From: Nannocystis bainbridge
GTDB taxonomy: Bacteria; Myxococcota_A; Polyangia; Nannocystales; Nannocystaceae
DNA: 64,000 nucleotides
Direction of reading: 5' to 3'
Assembly (NCBI RefSeq): GCF_028368995.1
Contig: NZ_JAQNDL010000002.1
Location: 1,888,001-1,952,000 of the forward strand
A program made the translations under genes and the position numbers. This document shows positions 4,389-64,000 of the stretch, piece after piece (position 1 is the stretch's first letter; each line of letters starts with the position of its first letter). Under the pieces are notes generated by a model. The model had not been told where the DNA came from. It ran no database searches and saw only the letters and a list, made by a program, of their open reading frames with translations.

Positions 4389-4477
4389 TGGCGCTTCGAG
4401 CATGTCCCGGGGGGCATGCTCGAAGAGACATGCGCGTCAGGACATGTCGAACCCGACATGTCCATCAGGACATGCGC
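4389..4477. repeat. Head-to-tail array of six 14-bp palindromic units (TGTCC-N4-GGACA family)
   Basis: tggcg cttc gagca|tgtcc cggg gggca|tgctc gaag agaca|tgcgc gtca ggaca|tgtcg aacc cgaca|tgtcc atca ggaca, between convergent genes. Confidence 0.9.
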
Positions 4478-4630
4478 GCGGGCGCGGCTTCAGCCGGCCG
4501 AGCGCGGCGCGGTGCCTGGCCCTCACCCCGTGCGAGCCACAGCCGCTCCCGGCCCTGCTCTCGCAAGCCGCGAGCCGCGGCCGCTTCCGGCCGGGCTCTC
4601 GCTAGCCACGGGCCCGACGGGCCCCTGCCC

Positions 4631-7600
4631 TCACTTGGCGCGGATGACCTGGTCCTCGGCGGCCTTGATCTTGCGCGTGTAGTCGACGATCTCGGGGTAG
4701 CGCGCGGCCTCGTAGGTGCCGGTCACCAGGGTCGAGCGCGTCGTCATCTTGATCTGCCCCGGGCCGACCTGCTTGACCGTGCGGCGGTAGGTGCCGAACG
4801 GGCCCTCGATCGTCTCCTCGGTCGGCGGCGCGGTGAAGCCGGCGCCGTCGAGCTTGATCGTCAGGCTGGCCTCGAGCAGCGGCGCGTACGGCATCGCCCA
4901 GCCGGTCTTGCGCTGCGGCAGCGAGGCGTAGTTGAGGCCCATGTTCATCGGCACCGAGTTGGCGCGCATCAGCAGCTCGCCGCCCTGCTGGACGATCGCG
5001 CCGCGGACCTTGGCGGTGAAGCGCAGCCGCAGCGGCTTCGGCAGGTCGAGCTTGTGCTCGATGTCGAGGTCGACCAGCTCGGCGCCGGAGCCGACCAGGA
5101 TCGCGCCGAGCTCGGCGCGCTCGAAGCCCTCGTTGATGCGGTCGGCGTCGAGCGTGCGCAGGCCCTCGCGCCAGGCGGCCGCCTCCATGCCCTGGAGCTC
5201 GATCGTGCCGCGCAGCGTGCCAGTGCCGTCGCGCGCCAGCTCGAGCTCGAGCTCGTAGCTGCGGCGGTCGGCCAGGCTCGGCGGCGAGGCCGGCAGCTTG
5301 ACCGGGCCCGGCGCGGGCTCGTCCTCGTCGAGCTGCACGCGCATGCCCTGCGCCTGCGACAGCCCCGGCATCAGGTAGCCGATCGGCAGCACCTTCGAGG
5401 TGGTGAGCACCATCGTCGGCGCCTTGCCGCCGGTGTGGACCGCCAGGATCGGCACCTCGTAGGTCTCGAGCATCGGGCTGCCGCCAGGCAGCGGCTTGAG
5501 CGAGAAGTTGTCGCGCGCCAGCCAGAGCTCACTGCGCACGCCCACCTCGCGCAGCAAGGCCTTGAGCAGCGTCTGCCGGTTGCCGCGGCGGGCCGACAGC
5601 GTCGCGGTGGCCGGCGTCGTGATGTCGCCGGACTCCTCGACCTCCTCGACCACCCACGCCCGCAGCGCCAGCAGCTTGGCCTGCGGGGTGCTGGCGTTGC
5701 GCGTCAGGTTGACGGCCAGCGTCCGCAGCTCGGGGTTGGCGCGCTGGCCGGTGTAGATGCGCAGGCCGAGGCTGGCCAGCCACTTGTTGGGATCGACCGC
5801 GGTGTAGACCCGCACCGACGGGACCTCGTCGAGGATGTGGCGCATCTGCGGCTCGACGCCGATCCGCTGCGAGCGCTCGACCTTCCAGGTCTTCAAGACC
5901 AGGTCGGTGCCGGCCAGCGAGCCCTCGACGGTGGCCGGGGCGCCGACGCGGCGGTCGACCTTGATCGCCACCGACTTGGGGTGCGCGACCAGCAGCTCCG
6001 ACACGTGGAACGGGGTCTCGGCCGACTGGAAGCGGAACGTGGTGAGGTCGATGTAGCCGGGCAACAGGCCCAGCGGCTCGCGGTCGAGCAGCAGCTCGTA
6101 CTCGACGCAGTCGCCGATCTGCAGCCCGCGCAGGCTGAGGCCGCTCTTCTCCGGGATCGACTCCGGCTCGAACACGGCGCCGTCGGCCTTGATGGTGTGC
6201 AGCGTCAGCACGCGAGCGCCGTCGGGCGGCGTGATCTCGCCGTAGCGATCGATCGCCTCTTTGCTGCGCAGCTCGATGATGGTGTGGACGAGCTGGCGCT
6301 GGCTGCCGTCGTCGTAGACCCGGATCGCGCTGCGATCGAGCACCAGCACCTCGCTCGCGCCCTCGTAGTCGCCGGGGCGCGGGGCCGCCGGGGCGCCGGC
6401 CGGGGCCGCGACCGCGAAGTTACTGGCGCGGTAGGCCGCGACCAGCGGGGCTCCGTCGACGCGCAGCTTCTGCAGGTCGTCGGGGATCCCGAGGCCGGCG
6501 GCGATCGTGTGCAGGGCCGAGCTCTGCGGGGCCTTGGTGAGGGCCGCCTGCACGCTCGCGCGCGCGGCCGCCGGGTCGCCGGCGCGGGCCTGCAGGTCGG
6601 CGGTGGCGACCAGCGTGCGCGCGCCGAACGGCCGCAGCGCGAGGATCTTCTTGCGCCACGCGATCGCGGCCGGGTAGTCGCCCTCCGAGATCTCGAGCTC
6701 GGCCAGCTGCTCGATGACATCGAGATCGTCGGGGGTGCGCTCGAGCAGCTTGAGCAGCAGCGCCCGCGCGTCGGCGTTGCGGCCGCGGCGGAACGCCAGG
6801 GCCGCGCGCGAGCCGGTGGTGCCAGCGCAGCGCTCGAGCTCGATCGCCAGCGCGTCCTCGCGGGCGACCTCGCTGCGCCGCTGCGCCAGGGTGCGCTGGG
6901 CCTTGAGCACGGCGCACGCGCGCGGGTGGATCGCGGCGGCCCGCGCCAGCGCGGCCTCGGCCAGCGGCTCGTTGCCGCGGGCGAGGTAGGTGGCGAAGCG
7001 GACCAGCTCGCCCGGCACGTGGCGCAGCGCCTTGGCGGGCAGCGCGGCAAGGGCCGCCTCGACCTCGCTGACCTCGTTCTTCTCGAGGTCGAGCTCGAGC
7101 AGGCGCACGCGCGCGCGATCGAGGTCGGGCGCGAGCCGGACCGCCTCCTCGATCGCCTCGCGCTGGCGCGACGTCGAGGCGGTGCGCTCGCGCGACGGAT
7201 CGGCGATCTCGAACGCCGCGACCAGCACCTGGCCCTCGGGGAAATCGGGCCCGTAGGCCTGCAGGTTGCCGGTGAAGCGCTCGGCGGCGTCGGAGTCGCC
7301 CTCCGCCAGCGCGTCGGCGGCCGCCAGGTAGGCGCGCAGCGGCAGGTAGCTCGGCCCGGCCAGCGGCCCGCGATCGGCGAGCAGGTCGTGGTGACCGATG
7401 CGCAGCGGCTCGCCCGCGAACGGGGTCGTCGCCGCCGGGCCGTCGGCCTTGGCCTGGATCGGCTTGCCGGCGGCGTCGGTGGCCCGCACCAGCACCCAGG
7501 TCTTCTCGCGCGCGGCCGCGGTGTGGATCTCGAGGCGATGCGGCCCGGGCGCGACCTTCAGCTGCAGCAGGTTCTCCGCCGCCGGCCAGCGGTCGCTGCG

Positions 7601-8521: not shown

Positions 8522-8522
8522 G

Positions 8523-12335: not shown

Positions 12336-12438
12336 GGGCGGGCCATGATGCGGGAGTTTTTCCCCGGTTGCCACAGTCCGCGCACCAGTGCGCGAGCAGG
12401 CCGTGGCGCGCGGCCGGCGAGGCGCGCGCGCCCGACCG

Positions 12439-14391
<1,953 letters not shown>

Positions 14392-14490
14392 GAGCGGCAG
14401 GATAGCGGCTCGCCGCGGCGCGCGGAGGACTTCACGCAGGACGGCGTTGGCGGGGCGCGGGGGCCGATCGGGGCCGCCCGCCCGGGTCGG

Positions 14491-25917: not shown

Positions 25918-26064
25918 GGGCATGCCCTTCACGACATGTCCCCGTGCCCCCTGCCTGGAGCTAGTTCTACCGCCCGCCCCACATGGCACAAGGGGCATGT
26001 CCTCTCGAACATGCCCCTTCCAACAGGCCCTTTCAGACATGCCCTTTCGGACCTGTCCGAAGCC

Positions 26065-26067
<3 letters not shown>
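25918..26067. repeat. Array of 14-bp TGTCC-N4-GGACA-like units (about 1.5 + 6 units)
   Basis: tgccc ttca cgaca|tgtcc...; then tggca caag gggca|tgtcc tctc gaaca|tgccc cttc caaca|ggccc tttc agaca|tgccc tttc ggacc|tgtcc gaag cctca; convergent junction. Confidence 0.88.
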
Positions 26068-30300: not shown

Positions 30301-31854
30301 ATGACCTCCGGGAGCCCTGTTTCGGTCGTGATCGGCCACACGATTGCCCTGCGCGACGTGGACGCTGTCGCCCGCCGCGGCGCCGCCGTCTCGCTCGCCG
30401 CCGAGGCGCGGGACGAGCTGCGACAGACGCGGGATCACCTCGAGCGAGCGCTGGCCGCCGGCGCGATCATCTACGGCGTCAACACCGGCTTCGGCGCCCT
30501 GTCCGACGCGAAGATCGCCCCCGACGAGCTCGGGATCTTGCAGCAGAACCTGCTGCGCAGCCACGCGGCCGGGGTCGGCCCGGCGTTCTCCGCCGACGTC
30601 GTGCGCGCCCTCTTGCTGCTGCGCGCCCACACCCTCGCGCTCGGGGCCAGCGGCGTGTCGCCCGGCGTGCCCGAGTTCCTGCTGCAGATGCTGGCCCGCG
30701 ATGTCCTCCCGGTCGTCCCGTGCCAGGGCAGCGTCGGCGCCAGCGGTGACCTGGCCCCGCTGGCCCACCTCGCCCTGGTCGCCATCGGCGAGGGGTTCGC
30801 CTGGTCCGAAGGACAGATCATCTCCGGCGCCGACGCCCTCGCGCGCGCCGGCCTGACCCCGCTGCGCCTCGGCCCCAAGGAGGGCCTGAGCCTCATCAAC
30901 GGCACCCAGGTCACCACCGCCGTCGGCGCGCTCGCGCTGTGCGACGCCGCCGAGCTGATCGCCGCCGCCGACATCCTCGGCAGCCTCAGCCTCGACGCGC
31001 TGCTCGGCACCGTCACCGCCACCGACCCGCGGATCCACGCCGGCAAGCCACACGTCGGCCAGCGCGAGAGCGCCGCCGTCTCGCGCGCCCTGCTCGTCGA
31101 CTCCCCGCTCCGCGCCTCGCACAGCGACTGCGGCGAGGTCCAGGACGCCTACGCCCTCCGCTGCATGCCGCAGGTCCACGGGGCCGCGCGCGACGCCCTC
31201 GCCTACGTCGCCGGCGCCGTGCAGGTCGAGCTCAACAGCTTCACCGACAACCCGCTGGTGCTGGCCCGCGCGGACGGCGGCTTCGACGTCCTCAGCGGCG
31301 GCAACTTCCACGCCGGCACCGTCGCCCTCCCGCTCGATCACATGACCGCCGCGCTCACCACCCTCGCCACCATCAGCGAGCGCCGCACCGATCGCATGCT
31401 CAACCCCGCGACCTCGCGCGGCCTCCCGGCCTTCCTGGCCGAAAGGCCAGGTGTCGAGAGCGGCCTGATGATGGCCCACGTCACCGCCTCGGCGCTCGCC
31501 AGCGAGTGCAAGTCGCTCAGCTTCCCCGCCTCCGTCGACACCATCCCGACCTCGGCCGGCAAGGAGGACCACGTCAGCATGGGCCCGATCGCCGCCCGCA
31601 AGCTGCGCAGCGTGGTCGACAACCTCGCCCGCGTGCTCGCCATCGAGGCCATCGCCGCCGCCCGCGGCCTCGACCTGCGCGGGCACCCGACCAGCGCCCC
31701 GCTCCAGCGCGTCCACGCGGCCATCCGCGCCCACGTCCCGCCGTGGACCGGCGACCGCAGCCCGGGCGGCGACACCGAGGCCCTCGCCGCCGCGATCCTG
31801 CGCGGCGAGCTGCGCCGCGCCGCCGAGGTCGCCTCCCCGCTCGATCGCGGCTGA
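30301..31854 (+). CDS. hutH: Histidine ammonia-lyase
   Basis: YGVNTGFG, LLRSHAAG, MIO-forming GSVGASGDLAPLAH, QDAYALRC, SGGNFH, EDHVSMG. Confidence 0.95.
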   Translation: MTSGSPVSVVIGHTIALRDVDAVARRGAAVSLAAEARDELRQTRDHLERALAAGAIIYGVNTGFGALSDAKIAPDELGILQQNLLRSHAAGVGPAFSADVVRALLLLRAHTLALGASGVSPGVPEFLLQMLARDVLPVVPCQGSVGASGDLAPLAHLALVAIGEGFAWSEGQIISGADALARAGLTPLRLGPKEGLSLINGTQVTTAVGALALCDAAELIAAADILGSLSLDALLGTVTATDPRIHAGKPHVGQRESAAVSRALLVDSPLRASHSDCGEVQDAYALRCMPQVHGAARDALAYVAGAVQVELNSFTDNPLVLARADGGFDVLSGGNFHAGTVALPLDHMTAALTTLATISERRTDRMLNPATSRGLPAFLAERPGVESGLMMAHVTASALASECKSLSFPASVDTIPTSAGKEDHVSMGPIAARKLRSVVDNLARVLAIEAIAAARGLDLRGHPTSAPLQRVHAAIRAHVPPWTGDRSPGGDTEALAAAILRGELRRAAEVASPLDRG

Positions 31855-31937: not shown

Positions 31938-32012
31938 GGACATGTCCAGGCCACCCTGCCCTCATGGACATGTCCTTCTCGGCATGTTCCATTGAACATG
32001 TCCGTACAGACA
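31938..32012. repeat. Array of about five 14-bp palindromic units (extra single copy at 32194-32207)
   Basis: ggaca|tgtcc aggc caccc|tgccc tcat ggaca|tgtcc ttct cggca|tgttc catt gaaca|tgtcc gtac agaca. Confidence 0.88.
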
Positions 32013-33241: not shown

Positions 33242-33441
33242 CGACCTGTCCCTACGAACAGGTAGACGCTCCGCCGGCGACCTGTCCCTACGAACAGGTA
33301 GCGGGCTCCGCTCCGACCCGTCCCCACGAACAGGTGCCGGATCCGCCCGACGGCCTGTCCTTGCGAACAGGTAGCGGGCTCCGCTCCGACCTGTCCCCAC
33401 GAACCAGCTCCGCCCCGCGACCTGTCCCCACGGACAGGCAC
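33242..33441. repeat. Six ~36-bp repeats, each carrying a 20-bp palindrome ACCTGTCC-N4-G(A/G)ACAGGT
   Basis: Cores start at 33247, 33283, 33319, 33356, 33392, 33423; linkers 2 and 4 are identical (agcgggctccgctc); convergent junction. Confidence 0.9.
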
Positions 33442-36963: not shown

Positions 36964-37077
36964 GTGCAAAGCCTTCGATCACGGGCGAGGGCCCGCGCGG
37001 GGGTGAGTTTAGCAAACGGGCCCCCCGATGCGACCGCGCGCGGGCCCGCGGATACTGCTACCATGCCCAGTGCCGCC

Positions 37078-37902
37078 ATGACGACCAGCCGCCGTGACGA
37101 CCTGTTCCGCCGCTACCTCGGGATCCTCGGGTGGGTCGGAGACCCTGGGCTCCACGAGCTCGTCAGCAGCCACCTGATCAAGGTCCCGTTCGAGAACGTG
37201 TCCAAGCTGCTGCGCCCGGCCGACGCGCCGAAGAACGCGGTGCAGCCGATCGACGAGTTCCTGCGCGGCATCGGCGAGCAAGACCTGGGCGGCACCTGCT
37301 ACGCCCTCAACGCCCACTTCGCCGAGCTGCTGCAGTTCCTCGACTACGACGTCGAGCTGCTGGCCGCCGACGCCGGCGGCGTCCCGCGGGCCCACGCCGT
37401 CTGCCGCGTCACCTTCGAGGATCAGCAGCACCTGGTCGACGTCGGCTACGGCGCCCCGTTCTACCACCCGATCCCGCTCGACTCGCTGCCGCTGCAGATC
37501 CCGCACGGCGCCGTCAGCTACGCCCTCGATCGCCACGCCTCGCACCGCGAGGCGGTCGAGGTAGCGATGGTCCACCAGGGCGCCCGGATCCACAACTACG
37601 TCGCCAAGCCGCCGGCCATCGGCTCCGACGTGTTCGCCGCCGCGATCGAGCGCTCCAACGCGCCCGACGCCCACTTCATGCGGCGGCTCAAGATCATCCG
37701 CTTCTTCGCCAGCCGCGTGCTCGAGATCGACAACAACCGGCTCGTCACCACCCACCACAACATCACCACCGTCACCCCGATCCGCGACATCGACGAGCTC
37801 GAGGCGGTCGTGCACGAGGCGCTGCAGCTGCCGCGCATGCCGGTGCGCGAGGCCGTCGAGGCCCTCGCGGCCCGCGGGATCGACGTCTTCGCTACTGCTT
37901 GA
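37078..37902 (+). CDS. Arylamine N-acetyltransferase family protein
   Basis: VPFENV, GGTCYALN, AH, LVDVGYG (Cys-His-Asp triad). Confidence 0.88.
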   Translation: MTTSRRDDLFRRYLGILGWVGDPGLHELVSSHLIKVPFENVSKLLRPADAPKNAVQPIDEFLRGIGEQDLGGTCYALNAHFAELLQFLDYDVELLAADAGGVPRAHAVCRVTFEDQQHLVDVGYGAPFYHPIPLDSLPLQIPHGAVSYALDRHASHREAVEVAMVHQGARIHNYVAKPPAIGSDVFAAAIERSNAPDAHFMRRLKIIRFFASRVLEIDNNRLVTTHHNITTVTPIRDIDELEAVVHEALQLPRMPVREAVEALAARGIDVFATA

Positions 37903-38752
37903 TCCCGCACAGGCCGACGTCCTCGAGCCCCGGCGGGGCCATGCCCGCGTCGTAGAACGGCAGGCACTCCTGCTCCGGCGCCCCCGAGCACATCGCCGGC
38001 ATCGACTCGGCCAGCGCGAGATCGCAGAACTCGGTGCAGCAGCCCGGCGTCCCGCAGCCCGGCACGTTCGGCCCGGCCGAGCACAACAAGCCCGGGTCGC
38101 ACACGTTGAGGAACTCGCACGGGTCGCCATAGAAGCCGGCGTCGCCGCTGACGTCGCCGTCGCACACGAACCCGCCCGCCGCGCTCGGGATGCAGATCTG
38201 TCCGCTAGGACAGGTCGGCGTCAGCGGGTTGCAGCTCGTCAAGCACAGCGCGAGCAGGCCACCCGTCGACACGTCGCACACCAGCCCGCCCGCGCACGTC
38301 GGCGCGGCCGGCGCCCCCTCGCACATCGGCGTGCAGGTCCCGAGGCCGTCGGCGTCGAGCAGCCAGCACAGCAGACCGGCGTCGCAGTCGTCGAGGCCGA
38401 CGATGCCGCCCTCGGCCTGGCACGGGTCACCCGCCTTGCCCGCGGGATCGGCGATCTCGACGCAGCGCGTGTCGTCGACCACGCCGGTCCCGGTCGAGTC
38501 GAACGGCACGCACTTCGCGCCCGCCGGACAATCTTGCATCCACACGTCGCACTCGCCGGCGATCGGCCCGCCGCTGGTGGTCGGCGCCGACGACGAGGTC
38601 TGCGTGTCGTCCGTCGTCGCCGCGGTCGTCGTCGTCTCGGGACCTGCGGGAGGACCGCCCCCGGCCTCGCTGTCGGTCCCACCTTGCTCGAACTTCACGC
38701 ACCCCGCGAGTGTGAGAAGCACGACGAACCGCGACGCTCCGGGCCTGATCAC
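37892..38752 (-). CDS. Cys-rich myxobacterial lipoprotein
   Basis: Lipobox LTLAGC, Thr-rich linker, CDVWMQDCPAGAKC, repeated G-D-P-C...C-D-x-G-L-x-C modules. Confidence 0.82.
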   Translation of the reverse strand: MIRPGASRFVVLLTLAGCVKFEQGGTDSEAGGGPPAGPETTTTAATTDDTQTSSSAPTTSGGPIAGECDVWMQDCPAGAKCVPFDSTGTGVVDDTRCVEIADPAGKAGDPCQAEGGIVGLDDCDAGLLCWLLDADGLGTCTPMCEGAPAAPTCAGGLVCDVSTGGLLALCLTSCNPLTPTCPSGQICIPSAAGGFVCDGDVSGDAGFYGDPCEFLNVCDPGLLCSAGPNVPGCGTPGCCTEFCDLALAESMPAMCSGAPEQECLPFYDAGMAPPGLEDVGLCGIKQ

Positions 38753-40309: not shown

Positions 40310-40337
40310 TGGCCTTCGTGACATGTCCCGAAGGCCA
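40310..40337. repeat. Two abutting 14-bp units at a convergent junction
   Basis: tggcc ttcg tgaca|tgtcc cgaa ggcca. Confidence 0.7.
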
Positions 40338-42390: not shown

Positions 42391-42775
42391 CCTGAAGGAC
42401 ATGTTCGTCGTCCTCGACCCGCCGCCCGGCGGCCTCGCGCGCCTGCGAGCCCGCCGCGACGCGCCTGTCCGCGCCCGCTGGCCGTGGCTGCTCGCCGGCG
42501 CCGGCCTCGCCACGGCCGCGGCCGTGCTCGCCCTGTCGCTCCGCCCCGTCGAAGTCCCGGCGCCGCTCCCCGCGCCCGTGGCTGCACCGGTCGACCTCAT
42601 CGCCGGCCGCACCGACCTCCACCCCGCGTGGATCGGCCTCGGCCGCGTCGCCCCGCCCACCGAGCCGCTGCAGCTCGCCCCCGAGCTCGGCGGCGCCCTC
42701 GCCTCCCGCCGCGTCGCCCTGCCGCGCCAGGACGTCGTCCTCTACATGCTCGACCCCAAGGGACATGCCCCATGA
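42368..42775 (+). CDS. Putative single-TM anti-sigma factor
   Basis: Overlaps the sigma gene end; short N-terminal domain, one TM segment (WPWLLAGAGLATAAAVLAL), Pro-rich tail. Confidence 0.65.
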   Translation: MKPPSEDDLKDMFVVLDPPPGGLARLRARRDAPVRARWPWLLAGAGLATAAAVLALSLRPVEVPAPLPAPVAAPVDLIAGRTDLHPAWIGLGRVAPPTEPLQLAPELGGALASRRVALPRQDVVLYMLDPKGHAP

Positions 42776-42821
42776 ACCATGTCCGAAACGACATGTCGCA
42801 TTCGACATGTCCCCATGTTCA
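42761..42821. repeat. Four 14-bp units spanning both stop codons of a convergent pair
   Basis: ggaca|tgccc catg aacca|tgtcc gaaa cgaca|tgtcg catt cgaca|tgtcc ccat gttca. Confidence 0.85.
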
Positions 42822-46087: not shown

Positions 46088-46678
46088 ATGGACGTCGCCC
46101 CCTGTGCGTTCTGCGAACTCCCGCACACAAGTGACAACCTCCGCCGCGACTACGAGCTCGACTTCTGCGAACGCTGCGCCGAAGGCCACGCCGAGGTCGC
46201 GCTGCGCGAGCGAGGCCACACCATCGTGTCGCGCGAGTGGCAGACGCGCGAGCGCGTCGGCAGCGACTTCTACACCTTCTATCACTACTCGATCACCGCA
46301 CGCCCGCGCGTCAGCCTGTCGTTCCGCGCCAGCTTCGCCCGCGAGAGCACCCTCGATCGCATGATCAAGGTGTTCCGCCGCGACCTCACCGTGGGCGACC
46401 CGCTGTTCGACGACTTCATCTACATCAGCACGCGCGACCGGGCCCAGGTCACCCTGATGCTCGACAGCACCGGCACCCAGGCGACCTTGATGGACCTCGT
46501 CAGCCGCTTCAGCAGCGTGTTCTTCGACGGCGGCGCCTTCGAGGTCCGCGAGCGCGGCACCGAGTCGATCAGCCCCGACCTCCCCGCCATGCTGTCGGTA
46601 GCCGCCATGCTCGTCCACCTCGAGCGCGCCGCCGAGGCCGCCGCCGCCCCGCCGACCGCGACGCCCGCTGAGACCTGA
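46088..46678 (+). CDS. Hypothetical protein with N-terminal CxxC...CxxC
   Basis: CAFC...CERC; GDPLFDDFIYI; GC3-rich codons. Confidence 0.7.
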   Translation: MDVAPCAFCELPHTSDNLRRDYELDFCERCAEGHAEVALRERGHTIVSREWQTRERVGSDFYTFYHYSITARPRVSLSFRASFARESTLDRMIKVFRRDLTVGDPLFDDFIYISTRDRAQVTLMLDSTGTQATLMDLVSRFSSVFFDGGAFEVRERGTESISPDLPAMLSVAAMLVHLERAAEAAAAPPTATPAET

Positions 46679-46815
46679 GCCTGCCGGCATGTCGCCCGGG
46701 ACATGTCCTCGGGCCCATGTACGAACGCGCATGTCCGCAAGGACATGCCCGAACGCGCATGTTCTCCAGGACATGCACGAACGAGCATGTCCGCGAGGAC
46801 ATGCTCGTTCCGTCA
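46676..46815. repeat. Ten-unit head-to-tail array of the 14-bp palindrome
   Basis: tgagc ctgc cggca|tgtcg cccg ggaca|tgtcc tcgg gccca|tgtac gaac gcgca|tgtcc gcaa ggaca|tgccc gaac gcgca|tgttc tcca ggaca|tgcac gaac gagca|tgtcc gcga ggaca|tgctc gttc cgtca. Confidence 0.93.
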
Positions 46816-50754: not shown

Positions 50755-51167
50755 ACCTGTCTCTCGGACCAGAAGGTCCACGCACCAAGAATCTGTCCCT
50801 CGGGCCAGGTCCCATCGGAGCGGGTCTCTCGGTTGGATACCGACTGACCTGCCCCGCGAGTCAGAACGTCCCACGCCGACGACCTGGCCCTCGGGACAGC
50901 CCCGGGCGTACCGCCCACTGTCCGGCCCGCAACCTATCCCTCTGGCCAGGCTCGCCCGAACTCACCTGTCCCGCGGGCCAGCCTCACCCGCGAGCTCGCC
51001 CTCCTCTGTCCCTCTATCCCTCGGGCCAGACTCACCCGCGAGCTCTACCTCACCTGTCCCTCGGGCCAGCCTCGCCCGAAATCACCTGTCCCTCGGGCCA
51101 GCCTCGCCCGCGAGCTCGACCTCCCCAGTCCCCTCGGGCCAGCCTCGCCCGTGAGCTCGACCTCCCC
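50755..51167. repeat. Spaced array of about ten ACCTGTCC-CTCG-GGCCAG units
   Basis: Cores at 50758, 50794, 50850, 50885, 50935, 50967, 51015, 51055, 51087, 51128; later copies are followed by cctcgcccg(cgagctc). Confidence 0.85.
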
Positions 51168-52385: not shown

Positions 52386-52412
52386 CGCACCGCCGGACCG
52401 CCGCGCGTGGCA

Positions 52413-52474
52413 TGTCCCGAAAGACATGTCACTGCGCGCGCGGTCTGGTCTGACCTGTCCTTTCGCGCATGTCT
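52413..52474. repeat. Array of about four 14-bp units at a convergent junction
   Basis: tgtcc cgaa agaca|tgtca ctgc gcgcg ... ggtct ggtc tgacc|tgtcc tttc gcgca|tgtct. Confidence 0.75.
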
Positions 52475-52520
52475 CCTCGCGCTCCTGCGAGCGCGACGCG
52501 CGGGGGCTGAGCGGCGCGCT

Positions 52521-55315: not shown

Positions 55316-55384
55316 AACTGGCTCGTAACCGGCTGAATGTCGCACTCCGGGTCGCCGTCCGAGCGCCCACCTCCGAGGCCGAAA

Positions 55385-56020: not shown

Positions 56021-56082
56021 GCCGCACGCCGGTCGCCCGCTGTCCGCGGGCGCCCGGGTCCGTCTGTGTTAGCCTGGAAGTC

Positions 56083-57969: not shown

Positions 57970-58090
57970 GAGAGGCTCGGCGCCGTTCCACAACGCGCGT
58001 TGGCGCGTGACCGCACGCTCGCCGCGGCGCGCGCCCGAGCGCGGCACGCGGCGTCGCGCTGCGTCACGTCGTATGGTTCAGGTCGCCACC

Positions 58091-59371
58091 ATGTCTCCGA
58101 CCGACGCGTTCGACGCTGCCACCCTCAGCACCTACGCCTGGGCATTCGGCCAGGGCGTCCTCGTCGACCTCACGCCCTGCGTCTATCCGCTGATCCCGAT
58201 CACAGTCGCCGTGTTCGGGGCCAAGGGCGTGTCACGCGGACGGGCGCTGTTCCTCGCCGCTTCCTACGTGCTCGGCATGGCCGCGCTCTACACCACGCTC
58301 GGCGTGGTCGTCGCGCTGTCCGGCGGCCAGTTCGGCGCCTGGCTCGGCGAGCCGGTGGTGGTGCTGCCGATCGTCGGCGTGCTGCTGGCGCTCGCGGCCA
58401 GCATGTTCGGCGCCTTCGACCTGCAGCTGCCGGCCGCGGTGCAGACCCGCCTCAACGCCGTCGGCGGCACCGGCCCGGTCGGCGCCTTCCTCATGGGCCT
58501 CGTCAGCGGCTTCATCTCCGCGCCGTGCACCGGCCCGGTGCTGCTGTCGCTGCTCGCCGTCATCGCCAAGGGCGCCGCCGAGGGCGACAGCCTGGCCTAC
58601 GGCGCCTCGCTGCTGTTCACCTACGCGCTCGGCATGGGCACCCTGTTCTTCGCCGTGGCCCTCGGCGCCAGCCTGTTCCGCCCCGGCCGGTGGATGGAGT
58701 ACGTCAAGAGCGTCTTCGGCGTGGCCCTGCTGGTGATGTCGCTGTGGTTCCTCGCCCCGCTCAGCCCCGAGCTGCGCCGCTTCCTCGCCGACCCGGTCTG
58801 GGGCGTGTGGCTCGGCCTGGGCATGGCCCTGCTCGGCCTGGCCGCCGGCGCCATCCACCTCAGCTTCTACGGCGAGCTCGGCGAGAAGCTGCGCAAGGCC
58901 GCCGCCGTCGCCGTCGCCGTCGTCGGCATCCAGGTGCTGATCAACAACACGGTCTACGTCCCGTCCGGCTCGTGGAAAGAGGTCCACACGATCGCCGAGC
59001 TCGAGGAGGCGCTCACGCGCGCCCAGGACCGCAACCTCCCGGTCGTCATCGACTTCGGCGCCACCTGGTGCGCGCCCTGCCTCGAGATGGAGAAGCTCAC
59101 CTTCCATCACGAGGAGATCGAGCCGGTGCTCGAGCGCCGCTTCGAGCTGATCAAGATCGACGTCACGCAGGAGACGCCGGAGAAGCAGACCATCAAGCGC
59201 GCGTTCGCCAGCGAGACCCTGCCGAGCGTGCTGGTGTTCCCGTCGACGGTCCGCTTCAGCGAGCACTTCGGCGCCCTGCGCAGCGGCGACGCCATGCCCG
59301 AGCCGACCCACCACCTCCACAAGTACACCCCGGCCGACCAGTTCGCCCCGCTGATCGCCGACGTGCAGTGA
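58091..59371 (+). CDS. DsbD/CcdA transmembrane domain fused to thioredoxin
   Basis: LTPCVYPLIP, SAPCTGP, WMEYVK, IDFGATWCAPC. Confidence 0.92.
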   Translation: MSPTDAFDAATLSTYAWAFGQGVLVDLTPCVYPLIPITVAVFGAKGVSRGRALFLAASYVLGMAALYTTLGVVVALSGGQFGAWLGEPVVVLPIVGVLLALAASMFGAFDLQLPAAVQTRLNAVGGTGPVGAFLMGLVSGFISAPCTGPVLLSLLAVIAKGAAEGDSLAYGASLLFTYALGMGTLFFAVALGASLFRPGRWMEYVKSVFGVALLVMSLWFLAPLSPELRRFLADPVWGVWLGLGMALLGLAAGAIHLSFYGELGEKLRKAAAVAVAVVGIQVLINNTVYVPSGSWKEVHTIAELEEALTRAQDRNLPVVIDFGATWCAPCLEMEKLTFHHEEIEPVLERRFELIKIDVTQETPEKQTIKRAFASETLPSVLVFPSTVRFSEHFGALRSGDAMPEPTHHLHKYTPADQFAPLIADVQ

Positions 59372-59373
59372 GC

Positions 59374-59570
59374 TGACTGCAGGGACATGTCCCGCGGGCC
59401 ATGTCTCCTGCGCCACGGCTCATCCCCGGCTCGCAGCGCCGCCCTCGACGCGGGCAGCCGGGGTAGCGCTACGCTGACGCCTGCCCACCAGGACATGCCA
59501 CAAAGGACATGTCCATGACGACATGTCCTCGAGCGCATGCCCACAAGCGCATGCCGCAAAGGACATGTCC
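59374..59570. repeat. Two arrays (3 and 6+ units) of the 14-bp palindrome at a convergent junction
   Basis: 59374-59415: tgact gcag ggaca|tgtcc cgcg ggcca|tgtct cctg cgcca. 59482-59570: tgccc acca ggaca|tgcca caaa ggaca|tgtcc atga cgaca|tgtcc tcga gcgca|tgccc acaa gcgca|tgccg caaa ggaca|tgtcc. Confidence 0.9.
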
Positions 59571-59677
59571 TCATCTTTGCCAGCGCCCGCCCCCGCGCAG
59601 CACGCCCCCGCGTGCCCCGCGTCAGTGTTCGGCCTGGTCGCGCTGACCCGGCTGCCGCTGGCGCCCCGTGCCCCGCG

Positions 59678-61240
59678 TCAGCGCCGACGCCGACGCCGGA
59701 TGCCCACGAGCACCAGCACGCTCGCCAGCCAGCCCTCGCGCCCGCCCGCGCTCGAGCGGCACGCGCAGCCGTCCTCGCCGTCTTGCCCGTAGCCCTCGGG
59801 CAGGGCCGCCCCGCTCAGCACCGGCGGGCCGGCCTCGTCCCCGCCGGCCTCGGCCTCGCCGCCGTCGTCCCCGGTGGTCGGCTCGCCGCCCTCCGAGCCG
59901 GTCGTCGGCGCTCCGGACGGATCGGGCAGCCCCGTCTCGCCGACCTCACCGCCGACCTCGCCGCCCGTCTCACCCGCGCCGGTCTCCCCGGCCCCGCCCG
60001 TCTCGCCGTTGCCGCCCGTCTCTCCGCCGCCGGTCGGGTCGGGCGGATCGGGCGGATCGACCGCCACCGGGTCGACGGCGATCGCCACGCGCACCCCCGG
60101 ATACACCGCCAGGTCGACGATCTCCGCCGCCGGCTCGTAGAGCCCCGGCCCGGCCACGTCGACCGCGTGCGCGCCGGCGCCGACCGGCGGCAGGGCCACG
60201 AGACCGTTGGCGTCGACCGCCTGCCCCGGCCCGCCGTCGAGGCTGACCGTCGCGCCCACCGCCGCCATCGCCGCCGGCGCGCACATGGCCGTGAAGTGAT
60301 TGGGATCGACGAACGCGACCGCGTCGAGCCCGTTGACGCCCGCGCACGGCCCCTGCCCGGCCTCCATCAGCAGTCGCCGGCGCGCCCCGATCGGCGCCGA
60401 CGCGTGAAGGTAGGTCACCTTCGCCCCGGCGGCGATCGGGCACAGCTCGGGCGCGGTCAGCAGGTCGATCGACTCGGCGGTGCGCTGCAGGTACGTGTTC
60501 GTCGTCGCGGTGATCGTACACAGCTTGCTGCGATCGACCACGGCCACGTGGATCTGGCCCTGCGGCACCACGTCGTGCACCAGCCCCATGTACATGTCCC
60601 AGTTCCAGCCGCCGCCCGGGTCGGTGTGGCTCTGGTTGGGCAGCTCGACGTGGCCGACGATGTGATCGCGGTCGACCGGGATGTCGTGGCGCGTCGTCAG
60701 CCAGCGCGTCAACCTGGCCGAAGAGACATACGTCTCCCACGTGTACCACTTGGCCGGATCGTCGACGTAGCCCTCGTGCTCGATGCCGATCGACGTCGCG
60801 TTCGACGAGCCGACGTGCCACGCCTTGTCCTTGTCGAGGACCATCTGCGTGACCTCGCCGTCGACCGAGCGCATGATGTAGTGGCACGACACCTGCGCCT
60901 GCGGGTTCTTGAACCACGACTTGGTGCCGGCGTAGCTGCCCTGCATCGTGTGCACGACGACGTGCTGGTACGAGGTGATGCCGCCCGCCGAGTGGTTGCA
61001 CGCGCAGGCCGGGTCGAACGCGGCCGCCAGCGGATACTCCGGATCGGCGCCCAGCGGCGGCGGCGGCTCGATCGCCCATGACTCGAGCTCGGCCGGGCGC
61101 CAGTGGTCGTCCTCGCGCTCCGGCTCCGGCGGGGCGTCCGCCAGCGGATGCGCCGCGGCTGTCCCTGCGGACAGGCCGAGCACCGATGCGCCGATCCACA
61201 GCGCCGCGCGGCGCTTCCAGTCCGTGGAGACACCCGTCAT
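59678..61240 (-). CDS. N-acetylmuramoyl-L-alanine amidase (amidase_2) with MYXO-CTERM sorting signal
   Basis: VVVHTMQG, SCHY, AWHVG, SIGIEHEG, IVGH, HTDPG; GET-rich linker; GCAC + TM + RRRRR. Confidence 0.9.
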   Translation of the reverse strand: MTGVSTDWKRRAALWIGASVLGLSAGTAAAHPLADAPPEPEREDDHWRPAELESWAIEPPPPLGADPEYPLAAAFDPACACNHSAGGITSYQHVVVHTMQGSYAGTKSWFKNPQAQVSCHYIMRSVDGEVTQMVLDKDKAWHVGSSNATSIGIEHEGYVDDPAKWYTWETYVSSARLTRWLTTRHDIPVDRDHIVGHVELPNQSHTDPGGGWNWDMYMGLVHDVVPQGQIHVAVVDRSKLCTITATTNTYLQRTAESIDLLTAPELCPIAAGAKVTYLHASAPIGARRRLLMEAGQGPCAGVNGLDAVAFVDPNHFTAMCAPAAMAAVGATVSLDGGPGQAVDANGLVALPPVGAGAHAVDVAGPGLYEPAAEIVDLAVYPGVRVAIAVDPVAVDPPDPPDPTGGGETGGNGETGGAGETGAGETGGEVGGEVGETGLPDPSGAPTTGSEGGEPTTGDDGGEAEAGGDEAGPPVLSGAALPEGYGQDGEDGCACRSSAGGREGWLASVLVLVGIRRRRRR

Positions 61241-61379
61241 GAGACGACGCTAGCCCCGGCGCCGTCCCCACGCAACCGGCTGTTTCGCGCCTGTGCGCCC
61301 CGCTACGGCGACCGCACGACCGGCGAGGCCCGCTGCGCCGACGCAGGACGCGCGCCCGGGAACGCGGGCTCTCGCGACC

Positions 61380-62066
61380 TCAGAGCAGCTGCTCGAGCCG
61401 CGCGCGGTTGAACCCGACCATCAACTCGCCGCGCACGTCGATCACCGGCACGCTCCCGGTCTGCACGCCCTTCTCCTTGGCCTTGGCTCGCAGCTCGCCC
61501 GCGGCGGTCTGGTCCTTCTCGATGTCCTTGGCGACGTACTTGACGCCCTTCTTGTCGAGGTACGACTGCACCTGCTTGCAGACCCCGCACCACTCGGTCT
61601 TGTAGACGATGACATCGGCCTCGCGCGGGGCCACCACCGGCGCCTCGAGCCCGGGCGGCAGCTCGACCGCGCTGCTGCGGCCGAGGCCCAGCGCCAGCTC
61701 CTCGAACTGGGCCCGCGGCACCGTCGAGAGCTTCCACGACCCGTCGGCCTCGGGCGTCTTCAAGTTCGCCGCCCACACCGTCCCGTCGGGCGGCTGCGGG
61801 CCCTGCAGCAGCGTCACCCGCACCAGCCCGCGCGCCTCCTCGGGCACGTCGGCCGGCTTGCCCGTGTCCTTGAACTGCCCGCGATCGCCCGCGAACGTCA
61901 GGACGGCGTCCTTCGCGTCGGCCGGCAGCACCGCCGCGCCGGTCTCGCCGGCCTCCGCGGTCGCCGGCGCCGCCTGCGGCCTCGTCGGCGCGGGCGGCTT
62001 CTCCGGCTCGCAGCCGCCTGAGCACAAGATCCACAGTCCGAGCAAGCTCGCGCACCTTCGCTTCAT
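61380..62066 (-). CDS. Glutaredoxin (NrdH-like) domain lipoprotein
   Basis: Signal MKRRCASLLGLWILCSGGC; IVYKTEWCGVC, SVPVIDV.G..MVGFN. Confidence 0.85.
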   Translation of the reverse strand: MKRRCASLLGLWILCSGGCEPEKPPAPTRPQAAPATAEAGETGAAVLPADAKDAVLTFAGDRGQFKDTGKPADVPEEARGLVRVTLLQGPQPPDGTVWAANLKTPEADGSWKLSTVPRAQFEELALGLGRSSAVELPPGLEAPVVAPREADVIVYKTEWCGVCKQVQSYLDKKGVKYVAKDIEKDQTAAGELRAKAKEKGVQTGSVPVIDVRGELMVGFNRARLEQLL

Positions 62067-62124
62067 GACGGCGCGAGTATAAGCCGCCACCGCGCCCCGG
62101 GCCTGGTAGGCTCGCGCCCGCGCC

Positions 62125-63825
62125 ATGGTGAGACTCGCATCCGGAGGGCCGCCCGAGGGCCGCAGCGTGCTCGCGCTGCTGCGGGCCGTGATCGCCCTCG
62201 TCGTCACCCTCACGATCCTCACCTTCGCGCTCTACTCCGGCTATCTCTCGTACACCGACCTCTCGCCGGAGGAGGTCCGCGTCCCGACCGCCGAGCTCAC
62301 GGTCGACCGCGCCGGCCGCCGCGTCACCTACGGCCGCTCGTCGCTCACCCGCGAGAGTCGGCTGTGGTTCCTCCACCTCGAGGGTCCGCCGGAGGAGATC
62401 GGCGACGCCCACGGCCGCCTCGCCGCCCGCCTGTGGGGCGAGCTCGACCGCGACGTCGCGCGCCTGCTGCGCAACCGCTACCCCGAGGGCCTCGAGCGCT
62501 GGACCGCCGACATGGTCATGCGCTGGGACTTCCGCGAGTCCGACCACAGCCTCTCCCCCGGCGTGCGCCGCGAGCTGGCCGCCCTGGCCGCCGCCATGCC
62601 CGAGGCCGGCGGCGAGCGGCTCTCGAGCTACCACCGCCTCTTCCTCGACCAGAGCTTCGTCGAGCTGACGCGCCGCCTCGACGACGTCCTGCTCGAGGGC
62701 ACCATGTTCGCCGCCGCCGCGCGGCCCAAAGGCGGCGGAGAGCGCGGCAACCTCGTCATCGGCCGCAGCTTCTTCGCCGACCTCGGCCTCGACGTCGAGC
62801 CCGACCGCCTCGTCACCATCGTCCACCCCGACGGCAAGTACCCGTTCGCCTCGGTCGGCTGGGCCGGCCTCATGGGCGTCGTCACCGGCATCAACGCCCG
62901 CGGGATCTTCGTCGCCCTCGACCCCACGCGCACCGACGACGCGCTCGAGGAGGGCGTGCCGCTGCCGCTGATCCTGCGCCAGATCCTCGAGGACGCCGAC
63001 ACCCTCGAGCAGGCGCTCGAGATCCTGCAGACCGCCCCGGCGCGCACCTCGGGCGCCGTGCTGGTCGGCGACGGCCGCCAGCGCCGCGCCGCCGTCGTCG
63101 AGCTCGCGCGCGACCGCGACGATCGCAAGCCGCGCGGCGAAGACCAGGCGCTGGTGTGGGCCACCAATCACATGCTGCGCGAGTCGTTCGAGCGTGACGC
63201 CCAGAACGACCGCATCCGCCGCTTCACCTCGAGCGGCTACCGCTACGATCGCCTCGGCGAGCTGCTGGCCGAGGCGCCCGTCGACCCGGCGCGCGCGGTC
63301 GCCATCCTGCGCGACCGCAAGGGCCTCGGCGGCGAGGAGCTCGGGCTCGGCAACCGCAACGCGGTCGACAACCTCCACCTCACCCACGCGGTCGTCGTCG
63401 ACGCCACCGCCATGGTCATGTGGGTCGGCGAGGGCCCGTCGTCGCTCGGCCGCTTCCGCGCGATCGACCTCCGCCACGCCCTCGGCCGCCGCCAGGAGCG
63501 CCCGGCCCCGCTCGACGACTTCCCCGCCGACCGCCTGCTCCACGGCGAGGAGTACAGCGACTACAAGGAGGCCCTCGAGGCCCTCGACCACGCCCGCGGC
63601 CTGCTGGCCCGCGGCCTGCCCGAGCAGGCCCTGGCGTCCGCCAGCGTCGCCCTGGCCCTCGCCCCCGACGTCGGCGAGCTGCACCGCCTGCTCGGCGACA
63701 TCGAGCGCGAGCTCGGCGACCTGCCCGCCGCCCGCCGCCACTACGAGCGCTACCTCGAGCTGGTCCCCGGCCGCCTGCGCGACCAGGAGCGCGTCCGCGG
63801 CCTGCTCGAAGAGCTGCGCGAGTAA
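62125..63825 (+). CDS. Peptidase C45/AAT-like Ntn-hydrolase with N-terminal TM and C-terminal TPR
   Basis: LEGPPEEIGDAHG, LVIGRSF, SVGWAGLMGVVTGIN, ATNH, S.YRY.RL, HAVV; TPR tail. Confidence 0.82.
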   Translation: MVRLASGGPPEGRSVLALLRAVIALVVTLTILTFALYSGYLSYTDLSPEEVRVPTAELTVDRAGRRVTYGRSSLTRESRLWFLHLEGPPEEIGDAHGRLAARLWGELDRDVARLLRNRYPEGLERWTADMVMRWDFRESDHSLSPGVRRELAALAAAMPEAGGERLSSYHRLFLDQSFVELTRRLDDVLLEGTMFAAAARPKGGGERGNLVIGRSFFADLGLDVEPDRLVTIVHPDGKYPFASVGWAGLMGVVTGINARGIFVALDPTRTDDALEEGVPLPLILRQILEDADTLEQALEILQTAPARTSGAVLVGDGRQRRAAVVELARDRDDRKPRGEDQALVWATNHMLRESFERDAQNDRIRRFTSSGYRYDRLGELLAEAPVDPARAVAILRDRKGLGGEELGLGNRNAVDNLHLTHAVVVDATAMVMWVGEGPSSLGRFRAIDLRHALGRRQERPAPLDDFPADRLLHGEEYSDYKEALEALDHARGLLARGLPEQALASASVALALAPDVGELHRLLGDIERELGDLPAARRHYERYLELVPGRLRDQERVRGLLEELRE

Positions 63826-63833
63826 ACACGCCG

Positions 63834-64000
63834 GGACATGTCCTTACGGGCATGTCCGACAGGGCATGCCCCTGAGGACATGCCCGTTCGAGCATGTCCT
63901 CCAGGACACCATGCACACGGCCGCCGGCGAGCTGCCCGTGCTCGCCGCTGCCGCGCGACGCGTGCCCGCGATGACCGTCCGAAGGGACATGTCGACTCGA
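63834..64000. repeat. Five-unit array of the 14-bp palindrome, plus further copies at the window end
   Basis: ggaca|tgtcc ttac gggca|tgtcc gaca gggca|tgccc ctga ggaca|tgccc gttc gagca|tgtcc tcca ggaca; 63976 cgtcc gaag ggaca|tgtcg. Confidence 0.9.

Follow-up and report, generated by a model that had tools for sequence, protein, structure and literature searches.

About 1000 short arrays of a 14-base mirror-symmetric word lie just past gene ends in the soil myxobacterium Nannocystis and may be an undescribed, probably factor-read signal for transcript ends

The 64,000 nucleotides of Nannocystis bainbridge DNA analyzed here (the window) contain 232 copies of CATG, and 32 consecutive pairs recur at exactly 14 bp, with one pair each at 13 and 15 bp. 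Chains of CATG were considered in phase when their steps were 14 or 28 bp. Every array listed in the initial annotation was found, at its position or a few bases off (Table 1). Genes were delimited with our own crude caller, and 31 of the 41 window genes have Pfam support. The window touches 10 convergent junctions, the tenth of which (63825/64067) closes just beyond its edge, where the partner of the last array ends. The claim that nearly every convergent junction carries a cluster holds for eight junctions with CATG-phase units and for one with a spaced array (33230/33573); the remaining one consists of overlapping genes (37892-37902), and one array lies in a tandem gap instead. In the largest array, consensus-like units alternate with degenerate ones, and an outer inverted repeat takes in both stop codons. 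The spaced array is a one-mismatch, non-abutting variant of the same unit, an identity that had been overlooked.

Table 1. Phased and spaced arrays of the window, with genes lying upstream of them
Feature	Position	Strand	Setting	Orthologous junction in other genomes
Lon protease gene	1980-4379	+	upstream of array 4389..4477	
Array, 5 units, 6 in-phase CATG at 4401-4474	4389..4477		convergent gap, 10 nt past Lon protease stop	3-5 in-phase CATG in 5/5 congeners
Two sub-arrays: 25921-25938 (2 CATG); 25982-26041 (4 in phase) plus terminal CCTGTCC unit	25921..26067		fill convergent gap 25906/26065	congeners: 4, 5, 5, 4, 4 in-phase CATG
Aromatic amino-acid lyase gene	30328-31854	+	upstream of array 31938..32012	
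Array, 4 in-phase CATG at 31941-32000	31938..32012		tandem gap, 84 nt past lyase stop	congeners: only 0-2 in-phase CATG
Spaced array, five CTGTCC-N4-GAACAG copies, period about 36/73 bp	33242..33404		convergent gap 33230/33573	
Single CATG-centered 26-bp palindrome (two half-overlapping units)	40310..40337		64-bp convergent gap 40287/40352	G010: three spaced CCTGTCC-GGAA-GGACAGG units
Array, 4 in-phase CATG (42764-42809)	42764..42821		fills 43-bp convergent gap 42775/42819, overlaps upstream stop codon	congeners: 2, 3, 4, 5, 3 in-phase CATG
Largest array, 9 in-phase CATG at 46688-46803	46676..46815		between 196-aa gene and trpA	
Two abutting units (CATG 52411-52428), one CCTGTCC-type, one further CATG unit	52411..52474		convergent gap 52385/52521	
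DsbD-like gene	58073-59371	+	upstream of array 59374..59415	
Two-unit array (CATG 59386-59403)	59374..59415		directly past DsbD-like gene stop	
Second array of the same gap, 6 in-phase CATG at 59494-59567	59482..59570		convergent gap	
Array, 5 in-phase CATG at 63837-63896	63837..63908		12 nt past stop at 63825; convergent partner ends at 64067	

Genome-wide (11 Mb), CATG recurs 3548 times at 14 bp. Steps of 13 bp (66) and 15 bp (248) are not in excess, as their counts match the background for non-multiples and multiples of 3, respectively. The consensus unit spans 18 bp with dyad symmetry, C[A/C]TGTCC-N4-GGACA[T/G]G. When its second base is A, neighboring units can share the self-complementary CATG, which results in the strict 14-bp phase. 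The spacing between its arms is rigid, with 1987 occurrences of N4 against 16 of N3 and 5 of N5. The same rigidity, which had escaped the first reading, is found in solitary units, and the non-abutting form CTGTCC-N4-GGACAG occurs 413 times compared with once for N3 and never for N5. With only the outer anchors fixed, per-base conservation reaches 92 to 94% in CATG and about 70% in YCC/GGR, while the center is free. The middle CATG was retained in 1670 of 2073 cases and 2740 of 3736 inner 10-mers were distinct, bearing out the view that sequence varies between units whose phase and ends are preserved.

We identified 954 arrays, whose numbers per successive size class are 347, 276, 210, 91, and 24, followed by 6 arrays with at least 8 CATG, a sharp ceiling. 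Their midpoints fall in convergent gaps (480), tandem gaps (333), divergent gaps (31), and called open reading frames (110). Arrays occupy 31% of convergent gaps, are rarely seen between tandem genes, and are all but absent between divergent genes. The orientation bias persists when gap length is controlled: among gaps of 51 to 300 bp, an array was present in 399/943 convergent, 154/2065 tandem, and 7/786 divergent ones. The association with convergent junctions read from the window also holds genome-wide. Units with at most one mismatch follow suit, being present in 734/1296 convergent, 963/3568 tandem, and 226/1425 divergent gaps. Arrays lie a median of 24 nt past the upstream stop and 191 nt ahead of the next start, and in tandem gaps 262 of 333 are closer to the upstream stop than to the downstream start. 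The suggestion that arrays absorb stop codons applies to a part of them: 249 of the 1293 stop-facing array ends lie within 10 nt of the stop or beyond it, and the remaining ends do not.

This placement occurs in a family without detectable Rho. The Rho_RNA_bind domain was matched in 0 of 73 Nannocystaceae genomes, in a search whose control matched 9 of 14 reference genomes, and a search with a real Rho protein likewise gave no match. Full-length Rho was present in 10/12 sister-family genomes compared with 0/19 Nannocystaceae. A passage of PMC11347177 lists Conexibacter woesei and Baekduia soli (Solirubrobacterales) as having no functional Rho, a condition that the Nannocystaceae resemble here. 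Moreover, no T-run follows the arrays, and U-tract terminator-like sites number 3 compared with 4.9 expected. Our leading interpretation, to which we assign a probability of about 0.48, is that the arrays are a lineage-specific bidirectional gene-end signal, read by a trans-acting factor through spelling and geometry, which would act in a host where neither Rho nor U-tract terminators were detected. The candidate readers that were searched for speak against it: PadR gave 0 matches and mTERF 0 in 73 genomes, and the distribution of D12 methylase and Vsr does not track the arrays.

Foldability itself could be what is selected. The arrays would then be terminators or 3'-end stabilizers without a reader, their GC-rich tetraloops stopping RNA polymerase or blocking exonucleases, and the uniform spelling would be a by-product of local slippage and unit birth and death. 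We consider this unlikely, although the evidence from folding is in its favor. The largest array is predicted to fold strongly as RNA (-96.9 kcal/mol with z -10.3, and -102.8 kcal/mol with z -7.8), and unit-bearing convergent gaps have a median folding z of -4.5. Hairpins are also enriched in convergent gaps free of units, as z falls below -2 in 40% of those sampled compared with 8% of divergent gaps. UNCG-type centers (419 versus 101 expected) and GNRA-type centers (352 versus 171) are over-represented, and G.U-type mismatches favor the sense strand after controlling for local GC skew (coefficient 0.354, bootstrap sd 0.062); this mismatch bias and the hairpins of unit-free gaps would equally suit RNA pairing as part of the factor-read signal. 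In Escherichia coli, REP325 is described, in a passage of 10.64898/2026.03.23.713779, as both terminator and stabilizer. A weak pairing signal, which also counts against a factor-read signal, consists of real arrays being 1.5 kcal/mol (5%) more stable than half-shuffled ones and of transition odds ratios of 1.3 to 1.5, computed by hand from the mirror-pair tables.

However, 3- and 5-nt loops should also give stable hairpins, yet they are 100 to 400 times rarer than 4-nt loops. Compensatory changes between arms were absent in every register tested: Watson-Crick frequencies at mirror pairs were close to expectation (MI ≤0.014), the CATG-centered register gave MI ≤0.011 over 5802 sites, and arms of solitary units (n = 271) did not covary (odds ratio 1.1, p 0.84; p-values in this analysis treat units of one array as independent, which they are not). 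The core variants are mostly non-wobble (CCTG/CAGG 132 and CATT/AATG 99), and the wobble-compatible ones are the rarest (CACG/CGTG 11). On the sense strand of tandem gaps, TTCG occurs 97 times and CGAA 103 times, and no U-tract was seen; both count against plain hairpins. Youth of the units cannot explain their common spelling, because centers are randomized while cores are 93% intact. The constraint on the unit is thus not accounted for by pairing.

The turnover of the arrays bears on another explanation, a selfish or neutral repeat that is spread or homogenized by an enzyme or by biased conversion and survives where it is harmless, past stops and away from promoters, without benefit to the host. 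Stop-proximal placement would be expected of such tolerated DNA too, which weighs against a gene-end signal. Furthermore, the array family is lineage-restricted, a feature that had gone unnoticed, being found in Nannocystis and in a single genome from a different genus. Among congeners, gap length is hypervariable where arrays are present, whereas array-free gaps are constant, and a unit-sized deletion of 14 nt at 59393 distinguishes metagenome contigs of a near-identical strain (X1 and X2, one contig each). In the close array-less relative G056, the orthologous convergent genes almost abut; therefore, arrays are dispensable at that junction, which also weighs against the signal that we favor. 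Against a selfish repeat, the RAYT-like transposase proposed to be flanked by arrays was not found, as RAYT/Y1 searches gave 0 matches, with a control that matched 6 of 14 reference genomes. The arrays do not form copy families: two-unit blocks are no closer to each other than in the shuffled null, and identical blocks occur only in large duplications. Adjacent units are mostly unrelated, with at least 8 of 10 bases in common in 5.4% (null 1.9%). Genes with arrays on both flanks number 67 compared with 80 expected, and array-followed genes are more codon-biased (0.415 versus 0.383, p 1e-18). Additionally, five window junctions keep their arrays in 5/5 congeners as array sequence and length change, and array size has its sharp ceiling. 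We consider a selfish or neutral origin unlikely.

A topological or nucleoid platform, on which gyrase or a nucleoid protein would load cooperatively and absorb positive supercoils between converging genes, appears improbable. Rigidly spaced dyads without covariation suit a binder of duplex DNA, the enrichment peaks at convergent junctions, and the codon bias of upstream genes would agree with such a role. Nevertheless, arrays hug the stop codon rather than lying anywhere in the gap, and one third of them are in tandem gaps. The one observation that speaks for the platform in particular, a correlation of unit quality at lag 3 (three units, or 42 bp, make about four helical turns), is marginal, with z of 2.0 to 2.2 at one of several lags tried. 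Finally, a tag for the competence machinery, a genus "dialect" parked inverted at gene ends on the model of the Neisseria DUS, is highly improbable: the genus-specific spelling, the conservation without covariation, the density of about 0.4 units per kb, and a dprA-like gene in the window would fit, but uptake sequences are not known to be intrinsically palindromic or to form phased tandem arrays, and are common inside genes, where our units reach 0.27 per kb compared with 4.59 per kb in convergent gaps.

The proposed likeness to a bidirectional terminator or RNA-stability element of the REP/BIME kind agrees with the placement, the lack of Rho, and the lack of a U-tract, and fails as to membership. 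REP/BIME of Enterobacteria and Pseudomonas (including REPINs mobilized by RAYT) are also hundreds of short, GC-rich, extragenic palindromes, clustered and strain-variable, concentrated past stop codons and between convergent genes, and a role as terminator and mRNA stabilizer has been proposed for REP in a passage of 10.64898/2026.03.23.713779. In contrast, REP/BIME are mosaics with linkers, while Nannocystis units overlap through a common CATG in strict 14-bp phase and have a fixed loop length. No RAYT, no copy families, and no compensatory arm changes were found, so membership is rejected and the resemblance is one of placement only. Bidirectional intrinsic terminators similarly offer one symmetric hairpin to both transcripts of a convergent junction; unlike them, the arrays have no A- or U-tract flanks, share one genome-wide spelling, and place several tandem units at a site.

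Parallels in mechanism to the factor-read signal that we favor come from elsewhere. Tandem operators of dimeric repressors, such as the met-boxes of MetJ, or sites with the 5-N4-5 geometry of FNR, are, like these arrays, rigid dyads that abut in fixed phase and match their consensus variably without covariation, but they sit in promoters at few loci rather than past stops at about 1000. The 3' stem-loop of histone mRNA has a fixed stem, a 4-nt loop, and a conserved spelling at many gene 3' ends and, because the protein SLBP reads it, lacks compensatory variation. It is an analogy of mechanism only, as the stem-loop is eukaryotic, confined to one strand, and present once per mRNA.

We infer that a reader of the arrays exists and affects transcription. 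Arrays would expand and contract in place by 14-bp slippage between conserved cores and would be retained where transcription units end, chiefly between convergent genes. Turnover by whole units is seen in the 14-nt deletion of the near-identical strain and in identical adjacent centers (75 of 1670 pairs, null 1.1%). There, a dedicated trans-acting factor would recognize the spelling and geometry of the unit, beyond mere foldability. It could be a dimeric protein that occupies each unit, side by side on duplex DNA, and forms a roadblock or boundary. Alternatively, it could bind the fixed hairpin (7-bp stem, 4-nt loop) of the nascent transcript; we consider the two about equally probable. Either way, transcription would be ended or insulated from both sides, and 3' ends would perhaps be protected. 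The one genome of another genus that carries the arrays (G067) has the same motif and placement, and its six congeners give 0 to 1 matches, a pattern that fits a transferable or losable reader.

All arrays listed in the initial annotation were found in the window, where 232 CATG tetramers occur and consecutive ones lie exactly 14 bp apart in 32 pairs, with one pair each at 13 and 15 bp. Across the source genome (11.05 Mb in 5 contigs, 71.5% G+C, 90% complete; the window is G000:C3:1888001-1952000), the 14-bp spacing was counted 3548 times and the 28-bp spacing 373 times, and the spacings of 13 and 15 bp (66 and 248) were at the background level of neighboring distances. The consensus between in-phase CATGs is YCC-NNNN-GGR with an A+T-enriched center, and the genome holds 1987 perfect 14-bp TGTCC-N4-GGACA sites. 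Units outside arrays usually have C as the left and G as the right flanking base, so that the full dyad reads C[A/C]TGTCC-N4-GGACA[T/G]G. With A as its second base, a unit can have the self-complementary CATG in common with its neighbor, which generates the 14-bp phase. The CCTGTCC...GGACAGG form is unable to abut and is found solitary or in spaced arrays. With an array defined as at least three in-phase CATGs, there are 954 arrays covering 50,086 bp; 347, 276, 210, 91, and 24 of them have 3, 4, 5, 6, and 7 CATGs, and 6 are larger, a distribution that declines slowly and then ends abruptly.

Locations of junctions, arrays, and neighboring features in the window and in the source genome (G000, with contigs C1 to C5); convergent junctions are named by stop position
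Feature	Location	In-phase CATG in five congeners	Observation
Convergent junction	window 4379	5, 4, 3, 4, 5	
Convergent junction	window 25906	4, 5, 5, 4, 4	
Convergent junction	window 42775	2, 3, 4, 5, 3	
Convergent junction	window 46678	2, 5, 5, 6, 5	
Convergent junction	window 59371	5, 4, 3, 3, 2	
38-bp tandem repeat	window 4532-4614		2.2 copies, 82% matches; adjoins the first array in a common convergent gap of 251 bp (90-101 bp in four congeners)
Spaced array	window 33242-33404		one-mismatch version of the CCTGTCC...GGACAGG form
Overlapping convergent genes	window 37892-37902		11-bp overlap of the 3' ends of an N-acetyltransferase-like gene, 37063-37902 (+), and another gene, 37892-38752 (-); sole convergent junction of the window without any unit
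Separate complex tandem repeat	window 50969-51167		periods 32, 41, 48, 72 bp, matches up to 100%; CACCTGTCCC words, similar to the unit's left half; tandem gap 50648/51313 (664 bp)
Largest array of the genome	G000:C3:1237916-1238185		16 in-phase CATG, 270 bp; tandem gap after a 128-aa gene
Large duplicated segments	C1 4.516-4.534 Mb; C2 0-2 kb, 3.02-3.03 Mb; C5 711-717 kb		identical arrays
D12-class (Dam-like) adenine methyltransferase domain	G000:C1:3591550-3592293		also in 38 other genomes; extended open reading frames (G000, 679 aa)

The placement of the arrays was assessed against 8014 genes, covering 84% of the genome, that were called with our own codon log-likelihood caller; 31 of the 41 calls in the window carry Pfam domains, and the genes are ordinary housekeeping genes. 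Array midpoints fell into convergent gaps in 480 cases, tandem gaps in 333, divergent gaps in 31, and called ORFs in 110, and 456 of 1458 convergent gaps hold an array. The initial annotation had made its case depend on a genome-wide orientation bias surviving control for gap length, and the bias persisted: among gaps of 51 to 300 bp, an array is present in 399 of the 943 between convergent genes, in 154 of the 2065 tandem ones, and in 7 of the 786 divergent ones. Unit density likewise reaches 4.59 per kb in convergent gaps versus 0.27 per kb within genes. In tandem gaps, the median distance is 24 nt from the upstream stop to the array and 191 nt from the array to the next start, with 262 of the 333 arrays closer to the stop. 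Stop codons are faced by 1293 array ends, of which 249 reach to within 10 nt of the codon or past it. Within called ORFs, 76 of the 110 arrays lie more than 100 nt from both ORF ends; many ORF-internal arrays are chains of three CATGs or lie in ORFs probably overextended by the gene caller. Genes preceding arrays show stronger codon bias (median 0.415 versus 0.383 per codon, p 1e-18; p-values are optimistic, as the units of one array are not independent). This placement says "end of a transcription unit."

Constraint on the units was measured with only CATGs 28 bp apart as anchors, leaving the middle tetramer free. The latter was CATG in 1670 of 2073 anchored cases, with each base 92 to 94% conserved, the YCC/GGR positions about 70% conserved, and the center free. 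That the core is conserved and the center is not, inside the same units, indicates that selection or a sequence-specific drive acts on the spelling. The spacing of the half-sites is N4 in 1987 units versus N3 in 16 and N5 in 5, and the corresponding counts for the nonabutting form are 413 versus 1 and 0. Among core variants, the commonest are pairing-disrupting transversions (CCTG/CAGG, 132, and CATT/AATG, 99), and the wobble-compatible CACG/CGTG is the rarest (11). Furthermore, mirror positions within the unit are Watson-Crick complementary as often as the column frequencies predict (mutual information at most 0.014 bits), the CATG-centered register (5802 sites) shows no excess pairing either (at most 0.011), and the sixth stem pair of 271 solitary units does not covary (odds ratio 1.1, p 0.84). 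Thus, a 100- to 400-fold preference for the 4-nt spacer without compensatory change argues that what is read is geometry and sequence rather than the ability to fold. The center tetramers are nonetheless biased, as CGAA/TTCG occurs 267 times versus 20.7 expected; on the sense strand in tandem gaps, however, TTCG (97) is about as frequent as CGAA (103), and no consistent orientation skew of the centers was found. An alternation of good and poor units every 28 bp, as in the array at 46676, was ruled out as a general rule by the autocorrelation of unit quality (-0.04 at lag 1, +0.01 at lag 2).

We interpret the arrays as a two-way gene-end signal that would be read by a dedicated factor, on duplex DNA or as a nascent-RNA hairpin, and we give this reading a probability of roughly 0.48. 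In a narrower form of it, a lineage-specific factor would read the TGTCC-N4-GGACA units singly at 14-bp steps, acting either on DNA, as a roadblock in both directions, or on the hairpin of the nascent transcript, and would stop transcription from both sides. The constraint pattern (fixed spelling, fixed 4-nt spacing, and no compensatory change) predicts such a specific reader, and the arrays resemble an operator array of a dimeric DNA-binding protein in their dyad symmetry, in the rigid spacing of the half-sites, and in the independent, position-specific conservation of the halves. The cognate-protein candidates tried, PadR, mTERF, a D12 methylase, and Vsr, all failed. The unit reads ATGT-N8-ACAT and fits the canonical PadR motif as given in an excerpt of PMC3506622; the PadR domain PF03551 had 0 matches in the genome, and the control search found it in 14 of 14 reference genomes. 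An mTERF-like roadblock protein was absent from all 73 family genomes. As for a drive on CATG itself by methylation or repair, the D12 methylase occurs in 39 of the 41 family genomes sampled, whether or not these carry arrays, and Vsr occurs in 7 of 73 and does not track them.

The family appears to lack the Rho termination factor. The RNA-binding domain of Rho (PF07497) was found in 0 of 73 family genomes (control search, 9 of 14 reference genomes), and the full Rho model matched strongly in 10 of 12 sister-family genomes (E-values 7.5e-135 to 1e-213) and in 0 of 19 genomes of Nannocystaceae. A real Rho protein, that of genome G021, used as a query had no match in the source genome, in a congener (G010), or in a member of another genus of the family (G011), and tblastn gave none either. 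In the excerpt of a published survey (PMC11347177), functional Rho is missing from Haliangium ochraceum, the only such case among 12 Myxococcota species, and from two Solirubrobacterales species. A terminator consensus scan of 20 kb gave 3 sites versus 4.9 expected, none at a gene end. That the arrays are the cis-signal of a putative factor-read, two-way termination or boundary system needing neither Rho nor a U-tract is the narrower proposal, which we consider doubtful.

Plain hairpin terminators, which would act by folding alone, are an unlikely explanation, although the placement and weak RNA signals fit them. Arrays share the GC-rich stem-loop of an intrinsic terminator, and the predicted RNA folds of the array at 46676-46815 have z-scores of -10.3 and -7.8; however, the U-tract expected after the stem, and the A-tract before it if the terminator were bidirectional, are missing, as T nowhere exceeds 27% and A nowhere exceeds 32% at the flank positions outside the outermost half-unit. 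The rigid loop and the spectrum of core variants also misfit plain hairpins. Pairing is not what is conserved in the arrays, and some signs of RNA pairing still counting are present. Real arrays fold only 1.5 kcal/mol (5%) better than genome-wide permutations of half-units, units, or centers, and fold z-scores below -2 were found in 92% of the sampled unit-bearing convergent gaps and, among sampled unit-free gaps, in 40% of convergent and 8% of divergent ones. In addition, G.U-type mismatches are commoner on the sense strand after stratification by local GC skew (logistic coefficient 0.354, bootstrap sd 0.062); the raw asymmetry is confounded by replication skew, which is strong in this genome. 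The local GC skew is unusually large, reaching +/-0.12 over 200 kb (-0.073 in the window), and has a marked effect on the mismatches found in the units, with a + strand share of G.T mismatches of 0.67 at positive and 0.37 at negative values. Long hairpins spanning a whole array, such as that at one orthologous locus, are in the minority, with lag-2 reverse-complement similarity of at least 8/10 in 3.9% (null, 1.5%).

Selfish or merely tolerated DNA is an improbable source of the arrays. Their restriction to a lineage fits it, and so does one orthologous junction at which G010 and G067 (from another genus) carry arrays and the genes of a close array-less relative, G056, almost abut; against it stand positional persistence and the lack of copies and of a mobilizing enzyme. 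The array-flanked RAYT-like transposase for which the initial annotation proposed a search was not found: IS200-type Y1 transposases (PF01797) gave 0 matches in the 90% complete genome (control search, 6 of 14 reference genomes), genes with arrays on both sides are not enriched (67 versus 80 expected), and no recurring "home" gene was found by position or size beside the 30 largest arrays. Pairwise distances of 1670 two-unit blocks equal a null with shuffled second units, and all 34 identical block pairs belong to large duplicated segments at contig ends, which are partly inverted and may be repeated operons or assembly-end repeats. MITEs, with terminal inverted repeats, target-site duplication, and near-identical copies, were rejected since there are no copy families and only 75 of 1670 neighboring pairs have identical centers (null, 1.1%). 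The proposed analogy to REP/BIME consequently stands for placement and possibly function, as short, imperfect, extragenic palindromes in hundreds of copies, but fails for the three defining properties: a RAYT, copy families by descent, and a hairpin kept by compensatory change. Rfam gave 0 matches at gathering score within the window.

The arrays appear to change in place. In 5.4% of neighboring unit pairs, 8 or more of 10 bases agree (null, 1.9%), and exactly 14 nt are absent at window position 59393 in contigs of a near-identical strain from two soil metagenome runs, which together indicate unit-wise slippage. Most units are old, their centers having become randomized with the cores intact. 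Comparisons with five congeners (flanking genes 85 to 97% identical; the relatives are partly incomplete metagenome-assembled genomes) showed that arrays persist at the five convergent junctions of the table and that sequence and gap length vary freely there; the length of array-free gaps is constant, for example, 59 bp in 6 of 6 genomes. Pairwise identity of orthologous arrays was 92% in CATG, 76% in flanks, and 62% in centers, figures that we do not rely upon because the aligner favors CATG matches.

Exact matches to the two-unit pattern were obtained in N. pusilla and three Nannocystis metagenome-assembled genomes. With up to 2 mismatches, a search of 73 family genomes found the pattern in the source genome, in 9 of 10 congeners, and in G067 (47 matches), versus 0, 0, 0, 0, 1, and 1 in the six congeners of the latter and no match in 55 genomes from 15 other genera. 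G067 shares only 65 to 80% identity with Nannocystis and is marginally nearer to its own genus. In the 100 kb around its matches (e.g., L068-L072), arrays occupy 8 of 15 gaps between convergent genes and 2 of 47 tandem gaps, and none of the 18 divergent gaps has one. No comparable spaced-palindrome repeat was found in 200 kb of G011. This patchy distribution suggests a transferable or losable determinant, and the gene of the factor that would read the gene-end signal would account for presence in Nannocystis and G067.

A literature search found no description of this repeat in Nannocystis or myxobacteria, and the unit decamer only in p53 papers. The arrays bear on how transcription ends in GC-rich bacteria without Rho and U-rich terminators, for which this organism offers about 1000 natural, phased, sequence-defined gene-end sites. 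If the factor-read reading is true, a two-way terminator/insulator would join the bacterial repertoire, and the engineering of myxobacteria, a major source of natural products, would gain a compact insulator part that works in both directions. If the arrays are tolerated junk, they would still be a clean example of a consensus-held repeat family without a known transposase.

The platform for positive supercoils between converging genes, one of two readings offered in the initial annotation, seems remote, and a role as an uptake tag is scarcely credible. The quality of units was weakly and positively correlated at lag 3 (0.09-0.14, z about 2), perhaps by chance, and uncorrelated at lag 2; three units span 42 bp, about four helical turns.
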